Shown: positions 1 through 6,551 of the stretch, piece by piece
How the letters are laid out: every line of letters begins with the position of its first letter
Numbering within the stretch: the first letter of the stretch is position 1
Source: a virus
IMG/VR virus record: IMGVR_UViG_3300045988_001082
Location: 1-6,551 of that record
DNA length: 6,551 bases
Strand: one strand, 5' to 3'
Translations under genes and position numbers: made by a program
The notes under the pieces: generated by a model
Seen by the model: only the letters and a program-made list of their open reading frames with translations
What the model was told of the DNA's origin: nothing
The model's database searches: none

Positions 1-36
1 CGCATCAAACGTAGCGTCAAAAATGTTTTGTGCCAT
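1..36 (-). CDS. VP1: Duplicated 5' end (first 12 codons, MAQNIFDATFDA) of the VP1 gene, an artefact of the circular permutation
   Basis: Position 36 corresponds to 6460 (offset 6424). The sequence is identical to the VP1 start region at the other end of the window. Confidence 0.8.
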   Translation of the reverse strand, partial: MAQNIFDATFDA

Positions 37-127
37 TAAATTGAGGTTTAATTGTTAATGAATCTACCTTTTGCTGAGTAGTTTGTTGAGAATCTTGTTT
101 TGAATTAGAATTTTTCCAAAACACAGA
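1..127. repeat. Terminal direct repeat: bases 1-127 are identical to 6425-6551. This is circular-permutation redundancy of a 6424-nt circular genome, not an att site.
   Basis: Direct comparison shows every base of 1-127 equals 6425-6551. The repeat carries the VP1 start codon (36 = 6460) and the 3' end of the 71-aa ORF, so it is coding sequence duplicated by linearising a circle. Confidence 0.9.
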
Positions 128-2355: not shown

Positions 2356-3243
2356 TTAACGGAATCCAATTGGAGACATAGACTTTCCAAGGAAACCACC
2401 TTTTTGCAGAGAAGTTGTAGCACCAGCAAATTGACCAACGGCAAACGAAATAGAATTAATCCAAGTTGTAGCAACATTAGTAGCGCGTTCAGTTGAGTCC
2501 CAGTTTTTAGCCTGATCAAAATTGAATTTAGCATGCTGATTCGAGATATCAATACCCGTTTGTCTGTATAACTCTGTCATAGTCTGTTCACTAGCCAACA
2601 TACCTTGCTTCTTTTGCATATAAGTAGACGCATTCAGGTTCATTACACGAGCCAACTGGGTAGCCATCATGTCTTGCACTTCAGCAGCATTAAGAGCAAT
2701 ACGAGAATTGCTCTCTTTCATCTCCTGATATGTCTTCTTACACAAGAGTTCGAATTCCTGAGAACGCAAGTACCTATCAAATTTCATCTGAACTATCTTC
2801 TCATCTATTTCATGCTGTTGAGACTTCATTGTATTAATACGTTCACGAGCTTCAGCCATGGCAACGTCAATTTCTTGAAGTTTCTTAGCAGCTACTTCAG
2901 CTTCCGCATGATTTAACTGTCCGAGCTCATGATTCACATAGATAGTTGAGTTATTGAGCTCAATATCACTTTCAGTACGAGCCTTACGCAGTAAATAATC
3001 AGCTGTAAGTAAACTTTCTTCAGTATCCGTTTTCTTACTCTGCGATTCAGCAAGACGAGCTTGAGCAGCTTTCAATCCAGTATCAGCAGCAATTTGCGCA
3101 GTCTGTCCGTAAGTATTCGTAGGTATCACATTAAACCGAGGTGTAGGAGCTTGTGCAGGAGCTTCAGGAGCAGTTGCATTTCCTATATCACCACGAGAGT
3201 ACATTAAATCCGGATTTAATCCGGCGTCTTTCAAACGTTGCAT
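2356..3243 (-). CDS. VP2: DNA pilot / minor capsid protein (VP2, H-like), coiled-coil body, 295 aa. It probably continues from the 3231-3506 ORF through a +1 frame change.
   Basis: Long Q/E/K/A-rich predicted coiled-coil (AEAEVAAKKLQEIDVAMAEARERINTMKSQQHEIDEKIVQMKFDRYLRSQEFELL...), as in the H/VP2 pilot proteins. It starts MQRLKDAGLNPDLMY, which I recall as resembling a conserved VP2 block (K-x-AGLNP-x-L-x-Y). In this frame a TAA lies 8 codons upstream of the ATG. Confidence 0.7.
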   Translation of the reverse strand: MQRLKDAGLNPDLMYSRGDIGNATAPEAPAQAPTPRFNVIPTNTYGQTAQIAADTGLKAAQARLAESQSKKTDTEESLLTADYLLRKARTESDIELNNSTIYVNHELGQLNHAEAEVAAKKLQEIDVAMAEARERINTMKSQQHEIDEKIVQMKFDRYLRSQEFELLCKKTYQEMKESNSRIALNAAEVQDMMATQLARVMNLNASTYMQKKQGMLASEQTMTELYRQTGIDISNQHAKFNFDQAKNWDSTERATNVATTWINSISFAVGQFAGATTSLQKGGFLGKSMSPIGFR

Positions 3244-3506
3244 CTGGCAGCAGGTGAATTGTAAGAGTTATTTTTCTCATACATTTGTTCAATCCATTGC
3301 TGTTGTGCGAGACGTTCTTCACGAGCGAATTTACTTTCACGCTCGAATGCTTCAGCGGACTGCTTACGATTACTTTTATTTCCGAAAAAGCTACTGATAG
3401 CAGATATGGCGGCACCTCCGATGCCGCCAATTACTGTACCTAAACCTGGGGAAATAGCGGAACCAAGAGCAGCACCAGAAGCAGCACCAGCACCAACATT
3501 TGCCAT
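3231..3506 (-). CDS. VP2: N-terminal segment of the DNA pilot / minor capsid protein (VP2, phiX174 H-like): a glycine-zipper-rich hydrophobic N-terminus, 91 aa
   Basis: MANVGAGAASGAALGSAISPGLGTVIGGIGGAAISAISSFFG resembles the Gly/Ala-rich transmembrane N-terminus of phiX174 H (MFGAIAGGIASALAGGAMSKLFGGG). The ORF ends 13 nt inside the next ORF, in another frame. Confidence 0.6.
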   Translation of the reverse strand: MANVGAGAASGAALGSAISPGLGTVIGGIGGAAISAISSFFGNKSNRKQSAEAFERESKFAREERLAQQQWIEQMYEKNNSYNSPAARCNV

Positions 3507-3508
3507 AA

Positions 3509-3832
3509 TCAGTTGTTTTGAGGATTAATATACTTATCACCGAATTTCTTCTGACGAAGAACTTGCAGAGCTTTACGCTGGGAAGCTTTTTCCATTTCCC
3601 AGGCAGTAGCCATATCCATATCACGGCGGAATTGAGGATCTATATTCCAAGAGGCATCACCATTAACGTCAATAAAATTTACATTCATAGGTGAAACGGG
3701 AATACCACGTTTTGCCATTTCAGCTACTTGTTGAGGTGTTAAACCTAGATTAGGTTTAGTTCTTTCAAAATCTTTTTGTACATCAAAATTACATTCAACA
3801 GATTTGTAATCCGGTTTTGTATTTCTAGCCAT
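3509..3832 (-). CDS. Hypothetical protein, 107 aa. Its position immediately upstream of the pilot-protein gene makes it a candidate internal scaffolding protein (VP3-like), but this is unproven.
   Basis: An ORF in the track with a balanced, protein-like composition. Its stop is 2 nt before the next start (TGA tt ATG). No Shine-Dalgarno sequence is present. The function is inferred from position only. Confidence 0.5.
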   Translation of the reverse strand: MARNTKPDYKSVECNFDVQKDFERTKPNLGLTPQQVAEMAKRGIPVSPMNVNFIDVNGDASWNIDPQFRRDMDMATAWEMEKASQRKALQVLRQKKFGDKYINPQNN

Positions 3833-3860
3833 AATTGTATAATTTAAAAGTTTACATTAC

Positions 3861-3894
3861 GCAACAAAGTTGCTATTAATTTGCGTTTCACGCA
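3861..3894. other. Two small stem-loops 40-60 nt upstream of the 107-aa ORF start: gcaac-aaa-gttgc (3861-3873) and tgcg-tttca-cgca (3882-3894)
   Basis: A perfect 5-bp and a perfect 4-bp stem read directly from the sequence. Their function is unknown; they might be ssDNA structural signals or an operator. Confidence 0.4.
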
Positions 3895-3932
3895 GAGGGA
3901 AAATACTTTTCCCTTTTAATCTTACGATATTG

Positions 3933-3940
3933 CAAAGGTA
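3933..3940 (-). promoter_or_regulatory. Candidate Bacteroidetes-type -7 promoter element TAccTTTG (coding sense), about 100 nt upstream of the 107-aa ORF. An aTTG lies 21 nt further upstream (weak -33).
   Basis: Matches the TAnnTTTG consensus of Bacteroidetes sigma-A promoters. The -33 TTTG is only partial. No Shine-Dalgarno sequence is present upstream of any gene in the window. Confidence 0.25.
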
Positions 3941-3969
3941 GGTATGTGCGCGCGACAAGTCCAATGAAC

Positions 3970-4033
3970 CTAGTACTAATAATTGATTAAATATTATAAC
4001 AAGGTTCTAATATTTAACAATTATTACTACTAG
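3970..4033. repeat. Imperfect inverted repeat. Arm ctagtactaataattg (3970-3985) pairs with arm caattattactactag (4018-4033) at 15/16 positions. A nested 7-bp inverted repeat, ggttcta (4003-4009) with tagaacc (4031-4037), competes for the second arm.
   Basis: The reverse complement of 4018-4033 is ctagtagtaataattg, one mismatch against 3970-3985. The reverse complement of 4031-4037 equals 4003-4009, and this pairing extends to about 9-10 bp with one bulge. Confidence 0.7.
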
Positions 4034-4097
4034 AACCCTTGGAGCAAGTCACACACACATGCCTTAAAGATGCAATGTCGGAAGAAAAAAGAAAAAA

Positions 4098-4259
4098 TTA
4101 TTTTCTAGGAGTACAGAGCTCATAAACAGCAAGTGAGGCATATTTAGAAGACAAAGACGTGTAATAATCTACCATTTCATCATAAGTCATACATTTAAAT
4201 TCCTCAACAAACGGTTTATAAACATCAATAGAATACCTAAACAAATAATAATTTCTCAT
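4098..4259 (-). CDS. Hypothetical small protein (53 aa: MRNYYLFRYSIDVYKPFVEEFKCMTYDEMVDYYTSLSSKYASLAVYELCTPRK). It is below the 60-aa track cutoff and was found by hand translation.
   Basis: Its ATG overlaps the VP1 stop as TAATG (1-nt overlap at 4259), a classic translational-coupling arrangement. The composition is protein-like and it ends with TAA at 4098-4100. No homology is recognised. Confidence 0.4.
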   Translation of the reverse strand: MRNYYLFRYSIDVYKPFVEEFKCMTYDEMVDYYTSLSSKYASLAVYELCTPRK

Positions 4260-6460
4260 TAGTCCAAACGAGGTATCGCAACACGGCTGATTGGTAATCG
4301 GGCGGTAGCATTAAACTTCACATAACCGAAAATTTTATCCGTGTACTCGGTAACGCTGAATACCTGATTAACCGTATCAGAGTCAACGAGTAAAAACTGT
4401 TGGCCAAGTTGAGGTAATCCGGAGAACACACGAGACATAATGAAATTTTTCATGTTAGTACGGAACAAGCCGTGCGCGCTATCATACTTAGCAACATATT
4501 CATACCATGGACGTTGATAACCGAATGTTTTATTCAATTGATTAGTACTGTCATTTGCAACAATATTCATTGGGCAAATTTCCTTATACGTAACAGGTTG
4601 GAAGCCGATACGGTCAAATTCCGGTTGATAGTGATCTAACAGACCGTTATATATAAAATCTTTAGGCAACAATTGCGTATAAATAGGTACAGGAGTCACA
4701 GTTAACAAACCAATAATATAAGACTCCTCATCACAGAACACTTCAATATTATTAGATGTAGAACCATAAACTCCAGCAATGCCAGTTTTAGAGCCAAGAG
4801 CTTCAGCATACTGTCCTTGAGAAGATGAGCCTTGTTGATCTACTGTTTGCTCAACAGTACGCATAGACAACTCGCGAGAAATACCTCCAATAAATTCAGG
4901 CATGAGAAGTTCATCAAAACGGATGTCAATATCCCAACGACCTTGCATAATCTGTTTGTATGAAAAACCTTTACGCATGTTAAGTTCCAAGAATTTTTGG
5001 TAAGCATTAACATAACGAAGAGTCTCAATAGTAAATCCAGAACCTTGTTCAGTAGCAAGAGCAGCTAATTCGGCATAAGAATTAATAGCAGTCACAGGCG
5101 TTTTTTCTGATACAGGATCATAATCAACACCTACAAGACGCTCACCATCTTCAGACACTTTATAAGATACACCGTATTTAGAGCCATCCTCATCAACAAG
5201 TACAGTTTGCTTTTGTACGGAGTAAGTTCCATCTTCAGAACGGGTAACAACATCACCTACTGTAAGCCCAACAAGAGGAGCATTCGCGCCTTGTTGCGGA
5301 TTCGGAACAGCGGTGGTTAAAAAATCACGTTCCCAATTACATTGATGAAGCTCATATAACGTAGTGTCGGCACCACCTTTCATGGTCGGAAGCCATTTAT
5401 TATAAACGGGACGACCATTAACTATAAATGGATTATTACGTATGTCACGATAATAAGCATTATAAACAGATTCATAAGCGCGAAAACGATAGGCCAACAA
5501 ACGAGGATTATTGGAACGATTTTCAGTAGCAAACGGATACGTACTATACTGCACATCATTTTGCAAAGCATAATACGTGTAAGTTACATTAAAAGAAATA
5601 TTAGCAAAACTAATAGGAGCAGCAGTATTAGGAGCAGTAACAACAACCATTGGGGTACCTTGGATATTACCCAAACTAGACGGGTCAATAGACGAAATAC
5701 TAAAACCGACAACACCATCAGCAGATTTTTTAAACTCAAGGGGTAAATCAAAACTGTAAGAAGCATCATCGGTAAGAAAAACAAAATAACCTCTTGCACC
5801 GTCAAAAACTCCAGATTGTCCACCAGTGAGGGTTACATCTATGCCAACTTGAGAAGTGGTAGAAGGAATAGGATTCGCAGAACCGCCGGTAACAAAAACA
5901 ATAGTTTGAGTACCATTAGTATTCAAAGAAGTAGTGCATACTTGAGAGGGAATACCGTTATTAGCGCGAATACTACTTATAACCTCAGATAAAACGACAT
6001 CCGTAACAGAACGAGAATTAACAGCGCAAGGTTTATCATGTAAAGTAGTAGTTAGAGAAATACGAGTTCCAAACGTAGGTAAACCTAAATAATCGCCTAA
6101 TGAACCAGTCCGACACATTTGATTAAAACGAAATGAATCAGGCAAAATATAAGGTTCTTCCAAATCATCACGGAAATTCGAAATAAAGTCGGAATAGTCT
6201 TCCCACATGGAACGAAGAGTTACCTTGAAGAAATTAAGACGAGCAAACATACGAGTCTGTACAGGAAATACCATAGGCATAAGTTCGAGACCAAACTCGG
6301 GATTAATACGAAGAGAACCTTTAGCAGGAACAAGCTCACAGAACACAGGAGTAATACGACCGAAATTAGTAGTCAAATTGTTCACATGAGACCAATCAAA
6401 TGAATTTACATCAATACGATTATTCGCATCAAACGTAGCGTCAAAAATGTTTTGTGCCAT
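4259..6460 (-). CDS. VP1: Microviridae major capsid protein (VP1, F-protein jelly-roll family), 733 aa
   Basis: A 733-aa ORF in the provided track. The N-terminus (FDWSHVNNLTTNFGRITPVFCELVPAKGSLRINPEFGLELMPMVFPV...ARLNFFKVTLRSMWEDY) matches the conserved microvirus VP1 pattern (SH...FG.I.P.FC.E.LP...L.P.V.P...FFFV..R..W). Its length is typical of the larger-capsid microvirus lineages. The start codon lies inside the terminal repeat; the first 12 codons are also seen at 1-36. Confidence 0.9.
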   Translation of the reverse strand: MAQNIFDATFDANNRIDVNSFDWSHVNNLTTNFGRITPVFCELVPAKGSLRINPEFGLELMPMVFPVQTRMFARLNFFKVTLRSMWEDYSDFISNFRDDLEEPYILPDSFRFNQMCRTGSLGDYLGLPTFGTRISLTTTLHDKPCAVNSRSVTDVVLSEVISSIRANNGIPSQVCTTSLNTNGTQTIVFVTGGSANPIPSTTSQVGIDVTLTGGQSGVFDGARGYFVFLTDDASYSFDLPLEFKKSADGVVGFSISSIDPSSLGNIQGTPMVVVTAPNTAAPISFANISFNVTYTYYALQNDVQYSTYPFATENRSNNPRLLAYRFRAYESVYNAYYRDIRNNPFIVNGRPVYNKWLPTMKGGADTTLYELHQCNWERDFLTTAVPNPQQGANAPLVGLTVGDVVTRSEDGTYSVQKQTVLVDEDGSKYGVSYKVSEDGERLVGVDYDPVSEKTPVTAINSYAELAALATEQGSGFTIETLRYVNAYQKFLELNMRKGFSYKQIMQGRWDIDIRFDELLMPEFIGGISRELSMRTVEQTVDQQGSSSQGQYAEALGSKTGIAGVYGSTSNNIEVFCDEESYIIGLLTVTPVPIYTQLLPKDFIYNGLLDHYQPEFDRIGFQPVTYKEICPMNIVANDSTNQLNKTFGYQRPWYEYVAKYDSAHGLFRTNMKNFIMSRVFSGLPQLGQQFLLVDSDTVNQVFSVTEYTDKIFGYVKFNATARLPISRVAIPRLD

Positions 6461-6551
6461 TAAATTGAGGTTTAATTGTTAATGAATCTACCTTTTGCTG
6501 AGTAGTTTGTTGAGAATCTTGTTTTGAATTAGAATTTTTCCAAAACACAGA

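Follow-up and report, generated by a model that had tools for sequence, protein, structure and literature searches.

An apparently split DNA pilot gene in a microvirus genome is a single VP2 gene interrupted by a one-base deletion

Gene order in the window and in described microviruses

The gene order VP1-VP2-VP4 has been described for the Suborder III microviruses (PMC9239249), and in the same study microvirus MAGs were repeatedly assembled with gene-splitting frameshifts, which were treated as assembly problems and patched with Ns (Kirchberger, Martinez and Ochman 2022, mBio; PMC9239249). Among GenBank records, the nearest to the DNA analysed here are rodent and tortoise gut microviruses, namely Rattus norvegicus microvirus (ON840028; 89% nucleotide identity), bajarodmic virus 65 (PQ006744; ~80%) and Tortoise microvirus 1 (MK765551; ~79%). 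Their VP2 genes, which have 79-89% nucleotide identity to our sequence, likewise lie between a 107-aa ORF and the gene for Rep, and the proteins share with it the same Gly/Ala-rich N-terminal segment and the motif NSPxAQMxRxKxAGLNPDL. In all three, VP2 is a single ORF of 378-383 aa, whereas the copy examined here is frameshifted. Bajarodmic virus 65 (XHH68299.1) and Tortoise microvirus 1 (QCS36752.1) have the gene annotated as a "DNA pilot protein" CDS, of 382 aa and 378 aa respectively, and the closest GenBank relative, which is unannotated, has one 383-aa ORF containing ...NNSYNSPAAQMQRLKDAGLNPDLMY....

The window, that is, the whole stretch of 6,551 nucleotides that was analysed, carries every long ORF on the minus strand, in the order VP1, small ORFs, VP2 and VP4 (Table 1), and thus has VP1, VP2 and VP4 on one strand in the order given above. 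Its two ends are an identical direct repeat of 127 nt, and therefore the genome is circular with an assembly overlap; the window represents a complete circular microvirus genome with a unit of 6424 nt plus the 127-nt overlap. The length of the overlap also suggests to us that the sequence was assembled by SPAdes from Illumina-type data. Start/stop overlaps of 1, 4 and 8 nt are found at other gene pairs of the genome. A search for prophage relatives by which a host could be named, among 185,579 bacterial and archaeal genomes, gave none that was confirmed. Separately, a covarying and strongly conserved hairpin of ~175 nt, together with three small hairpins, was noticed in the intergenic region that follows the capsid gene (4104-3861, minus strand). 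This region matched nothing in Rfam; its folding z-score lies between about -9 and -11 for the window and between -6 and -12 across 16/16 loci, and compensatory changes occur in 15 of 87 pairs.

Table 1. Coordinates of the features discussed, numbered from the first letter of the window.
Feature	Position	Strand	Description
Major capsid protein (MCP, VP1)	6460-4259	minus	733 aa; Pfam Phage_F, E=6e-43
53-aa ORF	4259-4098	minus
107-aa ORF	3832-3509	minus
Whole VP2 gene	2356..3506	minus	1151 nt; restored, 1152 nt = 383 codons + stop
ORF-N	3506->3231	minus	91 aa; begins MANVGAGAASGAALGSAISPGLGTVIGGIGGAAISAISSFFG, C-terminus ...NNSYNSPAARCNV*
ORF-C	3243->2356	minus	295 aa; begins MQRLKDAGLNPDLMY
Overlap of ORF-N and ORF-C	3231..3243	minus	13 nt, ATGCAACGTTTGA; from ORF-C ATG (3243-3241) to ORF-N premature TGA (3233-3231)
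One-base deletion site	3246..3247		plus strand GG, against GGG in near-identical and related genomes
Rolling-circle Rep (VP4)	2188-833	minus	451 aa; REP_ORF2-G2P, E=3.5e-18
Several further small ORFs

Two reading frames and one missing base

An earlier note on this DNA, made from the letters alone, had described two ORFs, here called ORF-N and ORF-C, that overlap by 13 nt, with a TAA eight codons ahead of the second start, and all of these elements are present in the sequence. In the frame of ORF-C the TAA occupies 3270-3268, and eight sense codons separate it from the ATG. The change of frame between the two had been given as +1 and needs correction: the first base of the ORF-C ATG is the last base of the 0-frame codon AGA, which places ORF-C in the -1 (=+2) frame, and a continuous SPAA-Q-MQRLK is obtained either when one base is read twice (a -1 slip) or when one base is added to the DNA. 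ORF-N comprises the native VP2 residues 1-88, with a Gly/Ala-rich hydrophobic N-terminus and then a charged helix, and ends in an out-of-frame tail of ~3-4 residues (RCNV). ORF-C comprises the native residues 90-383 and starts at the Met that lies within the conserved QMQRLKDAGLNP motif.

The two frames are separated by the loss of one C from a CCC run, by which the first frame is cut short behind residue 88 and the remainder is shifted into the -1 frame. In the DNA alignment the minus strand of the window reads GCC-AG against GCC-CAG, and the codon lost is that of Gln89. When the C is restored the fusion is 383 aa long and identical to a database protein, P0001, at 383/383 residues, which was the outcome of the proposed comparison of a corrected fusion with related VP2 proteins. 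ORF-N and ORF-C are thus the halves of one ordinary VP2 DNA-pilot gene, and the suggestion that a single pilot gene had been interrupted by a 1-nt indel holds, as the fusion equals P0001 and the gene is intact in near-identical genomes. The continuous block that had been likened to a conserved VP2 motif is likewise found in the relatives, which read through the junction in a single frame. The 13-nt overlap results from the deletion; relatives with an intact gene read these bases as the codons Met-Gln-Arg-Leu-Lys in a single frame.

P0001 is encoded intact on four independent Logan contigs from four runs (SRR3740077, SRR3740078, SRR3740081 and SRR3740082), namely SRR3740078_181 (L004, a complete genome of 6425 nt), SRR3740082_23, SRR3740077_1271 and SRR3740081_8. 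These contigs are 99.96-99.97% identical to the window in nucleotide sequence genome-wide and agree with it in gene order and in their small ORFs, but they read GGG at window 3246-3247, which gives one ORF, where the window reads GG. L004 differs from the window by one gap and by one substitution at window position 6032 (N143 of the MCP in L004, K143 in the window), and L005-L007 show the gap with at most one SNP besides; in these pairwise alignments the deletion is the only gap genome-wide. Since L005 and the window have the same allele at 6032, the deletion is the sole private difference in 6424 nt. The next closest genomes after the four reach at most 95.5% identity, and therefore the window comes from the viral population of the four runs.

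Family membership and the junction among relatives

The profile match, the position of the gene and the hydrophobic N-terminus all assign the protein to the VP2 pilot family of the non-Bullavirinae microviruses. P0001 matched phrog_8689 ("pilot protein for DNA ejection") with E=4e-21 over profile positions 14-270 in one stretch, and phrog_31272 with E=1.7e-14. Searched separately, ORF-N matched positions 14-66 of phrog_8689 (E=1.3e-3) and ORF-C positions 68-270 (E=6e-10), and because these parts adjoin and do not overlap, the two ORFs are pieces of one family domain. A VP2 of this clade is expected to be a single ORF of ~340-390 aa, and the relatives have one of 378-383 aa; in the window the ORF is interrupted behind residue 88, because one base is missing and not because the architecture is different. 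The Gly/Ala-rich hydrophobic N-terminus that had been noticed is borne out by the sequence itself and by the Kyte-Doolittle profile, in which the mean exceeds 1.0 in 19-residue windows starting at residues 1-25. Glycine-zipper Pfam models scored 11-14 bits on this N-terminus (E 0.05-0.3), short of their cut-offs of 24-29. For the putative coiled-coil body, an AF2 model of the intact protein from a shallow alignment of 18 sequences placed long helices at 169-247, 250-317 and 324-369, and is unreliable (mean pLDDT 42, pTM 0.18). A sequence search of the PDB with the pilot protein returned matches at chance level only, with no H entry among them.

Protein H of phiX174 (NP_040713.1) shares the annotated function, that of a DNA pilot for ejection; its gene likewise lies after the capsid and spike genes, and its N-terminus is likewise Gly/Ala-rich. 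Nevertheless, no similarity between P0001 and H was detectable by BLASTP (best E=1.4), and H matches phrog_1471 only, whereas P0001 has no match to phrog_1471 and falls in families 8689 and 31272. Therefore the description of the protein as H-like, which the earlier note had used, holds as a functional and positional analogy and not as a statement of sequence similarity; by sequence, the VP2 of the window and phiX174 H appear to be analogues or very remote homologues and not members of the same sequence-level family.

If the division into two ORFs were a genuine two-gene arrangement, as had been offered among the possible explanations, it should recur in relatives, and it does not. The junction is read through in one frame in 15/15 related loci that contain it, and among the matches listed 120/120 close homologues are 382-383 aa long. 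A search of 1.84 billion representatives clustered at 50% identity gave 7860 matches at E<=1e-3, and nearly all of the full-length ones cover query residues 88-90. At the position of the ORF-C start Met, the related locus L009 has Ile (ATT), and therefore this ATG is not a conserved start. In addition, the break falls inside the most conserved motif of VP2. Neither the exact 91-aa product of ORF-N nor the exact 295-aa product of ORF-C is recorded among 153 billion gene positions, and the deleted junction, searched as an exact and as a degenerate DNA pattern in IMG/VR and in JGI metagenome contigs, gave no match. Several short matches of high identity, from the searches of the representatives and with ORF-N, were considered as a recurrent split and discarded, as their tails proved to be opposite-strand translations (foldback chimeras) or truncations at contig ends; P0132 and P0134 are such chimeras, and in P0132 the homology stops at residue 89.

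Origin of the deletion

The missing base is seen only in the window assembly, so its most likely source is an error in sequencing or assembly, or a dead-end mutant, rather than a new arrangement; we regard it as very probably a sporadic, non-conserved deletion of one base, of one or the other kind. It represents neither a conserved split gene nor a programmed frameshift. In the natural population the product of the gene would be a single protein of 383 aa. Its N-terminus is hydrophobic and rich in Gly and Ala; then follow the conserved ...NSPAAQMQRLKDAGLNP... motif, a linker rich in Pro and Ala and what are predicted to be long helical stretches, and the C-terminal segment is again hydrophobic. 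The virus would make this ordinary full-length pilot protein, and it is the sequence of the window that lacks one C.

Between the two kinds of origin we lean towards a technical one, in sequencing, amplification or assembly; with such an origin, the split would have no mechanism of its own. Three-base homopolymers are weak error hotspots in Illumina-type data, which counts against this reading, as does the rest of the genome: no other frame disruption is found in its 6.4 kb, and therefore the assembly is not error-ridden in general. The split is also unusually clean, as one residue is lost and an ATG lies 10 nt ahead of the new stop. In order to judge this tidiness every single-base deletion in the intact gene was simulated, and a split was called clean when at most 3 residues were lost and a restart ATG lay within 20 nt of the new stop. 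Clean splits arose at ~7% of positions, or 13% when GTG and TTG starts were allowed, and in 2/46 homopolymer runs of three or more. A break as clean as this one, produced by ~4-13% of random deletions, is what would be expected if only tolerable deletions reached the consensus. Nevertheless, such splits were common enough in the simulation that the tidiness is only mildly unusual and provides no argument for selection.

Alternatively, a real mutation may have removed the base when replication slipped on the CCC run in the viral population, and one library may have yielded the variant as its consensus, in which case the genome would be defective. We consider this unlikely, although more probable than any reading in which the split is functional. 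Amplification from few templates, or co-infection with intact genomes, are possible routes by which such a variant could have come to be sequenced. It would produce a truncated N-terminal fragment of 91 aa but hardly any functional pilot protein, if any, and would not propagate independently. The deletion is located in a homopolymer, intact and otherwise identical genomes that could complement a defective one occur in the same set of runs, and the lack of other private substitutions is consistent with a very recent event. Moreover, a complete related genome from an unrelated run (L017, see below) also has a single homopolymer deletion in VP2. On the other hand, a technical error and a real mutation look alike in an assembled sequence, a variant that has lost an essential virion protein should stay rare, whereas the path that an assembler outputs is that of the majority, and no second instance of the deletion came from the product look-ups, IMG/VR or the JGI metagenome contigs.

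It is far less probable, and in our opinion highly improbable, that the split gene is viable, with ORF-N ending at its TGA, ribosomes re-initiating at the ATG 10 nt upstream and the two polypeptides forming the pilot together. The deletion does cost only Gln89 and adds ~3-4 residues, the ATG does fall within the 13-nt overlap, as in a coupled pair, and the genome has the other, shorter start/stop overlaps mentioned above; the low-confidence AF2 model even contains a helix break at residues 83-84, adjoining the junction. However, conservation of two ORFs and of the second start among relatives, which a coupled pair would also be expected to display, is lacking: two ORFs are found in none of them, with all 15 loci and all 120 listed homologues in one frame, the start Met is replaced in L009, and the break lies in a motif that the family preserves more strictly than any other. 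The 20 nt upstream of the ORF-C ATG are 50% A+T, against 70-90% at the other gene starts of the genome. The window has not diverged from the intact genomes, so there is no sign of the split propagating as a lineage. In addition, phiX174 H with N-terminal deletions is reported to be non-functional and to inhibit infection, which counts against two cooperating halves. If the deletion were real and the variant did propagate, it would constitute a natural experiment on the covalent link between the membrane-inserting N-terminus and the tube-forming body, and a viable split would imply that in a microvirus DNA-pilot protein the transmembrane module at the N-terminus is able to act in trans; nothing found here points to such an experiment.

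Programmed -1 ribosomal frameshifting or transcriptional slippage, by which the 383-aa protein would be restored from the deleted template, can hardly be credited: the shift needed is -1, the commonest programmed direction, the stretch from the TAA in the -1 frame to the TGA in the 0 frame permits a fusion product, and a hairpin of 6 bp (CCGGAT-TAA-ATCCGG) is present downstream, at 3224-3210, but the 0-frame codons AAC TCT TAC AAT TCA CCT GCT GCC AGA TGC AAC GTT contain no X XXY YYZ heptamer, a tRNA-Ala on GCC is unable to re-pair with UGC one base back, the hairpin begins ~21 nt past the shift point and not 5-9 nt and simply encodes the conserved AGLNPD motif, two Cs in a row are far too few for transcriptional slippage, and a frameshift is needed or conserved in none of the 15 related loci. 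The programmed frameshift that had been suggested along with a defective gene is thus rejected, for want of a slippery site, of a properly spaced hairpin and of conservation.

A sporadic deletion, in contrast, fits a background class of assembly frameshifts. In the MAGs of Kirchberger et al. (PMC9239249) a core microvirus gene is likewise broken into two ORFs by a frameshift; this particular site is not among them, and in the window the break falls at an in-frame ATG, which gives the tidy appearance of two ORFs. The search with ORF-N also recovered other broken VP2 genes in public assemblies, with unrelated one-base deletions at other sites, of which L017 and L018 are examples from the same VP2 clade. 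In L017, a complete contig of 6554 nt from SRR31464348, a T6 run is shortened to T5 after residue 40, leaving ORFs of 65 aa and 309 aa, and in L018, a SPAdes contig of 1.8x coverage, VP2 carries three one-base deletions and Rep is split as well. For the hygiene of annotation it therefore matters that VP2 be recorded as a single gene in which a frameshift is suspected (383 aa when corrected) and not as two genes, as catalogues built from such assemblies otherwise gain spurious "proteins" of 91 aa and 295 aa.

Circularity of the genome and variation in the capsid protein

The first 127 nt of the window (1-127) are repeated directly and identically at its other end (6425-6551), and the window is therefore a circular genome in which an assembler overlap follows a unit of 6424 nt. 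At 127 nt, this overlap suggests that the sequence came from a de Bruijn assembly with k=127. The near-identical Logan contig L004 carries an overlap of 30 nt and a unit of 6425 nt. The sole substitution between the window and L004 lies at window position 6032 and is non-synonymous, changing codon 143 of the major capsid protein, which reads AAA (Lys) in the window and in a second near-identical contig, L005, and AAT (Asn) in L004. From the comparison of these sequences, the Lys/Asn difference indicates standing variation of the capsid protein inside the same viral population.

A conserved structured element after the capsid gene

Between the end of the capsid gene and orf53 and the start of the 107-aa ORF (orf107) we observed a conserved, structured non-coding element on the minus strand (4104-3861), which comprises one long and three small hairpins (see the table). 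When folded as ssDNA, the 265-nt spacer reached -52.6 kcal/mol, against -20.0 +/- 3.3 for shuffled sequences (z = -9.8). Likewise, the region from the capsid stop to the start of orf107 displayed folding z values of -6 to -12 in 16/16 related loci, a set including genomes with an overall identity of only ~80%. In alignment A3 the conservation of the element is 95%, above that of coding DNA, and RNAalifold returned 87 pairs, 15 of which show compensatory double changes; in Tortoise microvirus 1, a GenBank relative, the sequence of the apical stem has been rewritten and the pairing retained. The sole megablast match of bajarodmic virus 849 to the window, 3859-3947, covers part of this element, and an Rfam search with the element gave no match. 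Our guess is that the element may serve the packaged ssDNA as a complementary-strand origin hairpin, or else act as a terminator or stabiliser of the mRNA 3' of the capsid gene.

Features of the window and of two related loci with interrupted genes
Feature	Coordinates	Strand	Description
orf53	4259-4098	minus	53-aa ORF; 1-nt overlap with capsid stop (TAATG)
Long hairpin	4090-3915	minus	part of 4104-3861 element
Small hairpin 1	3914-3896	minus	part of 4104-3861 element
Small hairpin 2	3894-3882	minus	part of 4104-3861 element
Small hairpin 3	3873-3861	minus	part of 4104-3861 element
orf107	3832-3509	minus	107-aa ORF directly 5' of VP2; 2 nt from its stop to VP2 start
L017 VP2	3768-4918		one base lost from a T run past residue 40; ORFs of 65 + 309 aa
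L018 VP2 and Rep (coverage 1.8x)	1659-2814 / 3007-4363		three deletions in VP2; Rep split 73 + 317 aa

Small ORFs flanking the element

Neither orf53 nor orf107 matched an entry in Pfam or PHROG. The former is found in the window, in L004 and in four related loci (L017, L018, L020 and L022) and is missing from L001, L002 and L008-L016, in which the capsid stop runs directly into the conserved hairpin. This ORF looks like an accessory insertion, some 130-160 nt long, that separates the capsid gene from the hairpin. The spacer 3' of orf53 is ~70 nt shorter in the window and L004 (265 nt) than in the other four loci (333-337 nt). The ORF orf107 is kept in all relatives, labelled 'hypothetical protein' in those from GenBank, and judging by its position it could be a candidate equivalent of the VP3-like internal scaffold, as suggested for Alpavirinae-type genomes (PMC3394797). 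Immediately 5' of this ORF, L001 and L002 harbor an additional G+C-rich segment (...GCGTCAGGGATTG...GCCCGCCCGGACGCCC...), which the window lacks (region 3860-3833, in the 3' part of the spacer).

A palindrome, a hairpin and one-base deletions in or next to the pilot protein gene

Within VP2, the DNA pilot protein gene, the conserved AGLNPD codons contain a perfect palindrome, CCGGAT-TAA-ATCCGG (3224-3210, minus strand), which many relatives retain as CCGGATT-N-AATCCGG through codon choice. Several public 'proteins' of this clade (P0134, P0270 and P0272) are foldback chimeras in which the change of strand falls at the palindrome or close to it, which suggests that the palindrome provokes amplification or assembly artefacts. 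At 6 nt past the VP2 stop codon is a hairpin rich in G+C (2349-2329, minus strand), with the sequence GCCGGG-(5 nt)-CCCGGC and a TTTT tail; it looks like an intrinsic terminator, and was not flagged in the scan because its T-run comprises only 4 T. In other public assemblies of related genomes VP2 is also split by one-base deletions, at sites differing from that of the window, as in L017 and L018, and the 'SFLEI' frameshift of L017 recurs in P0287, a public protein record from another strain.
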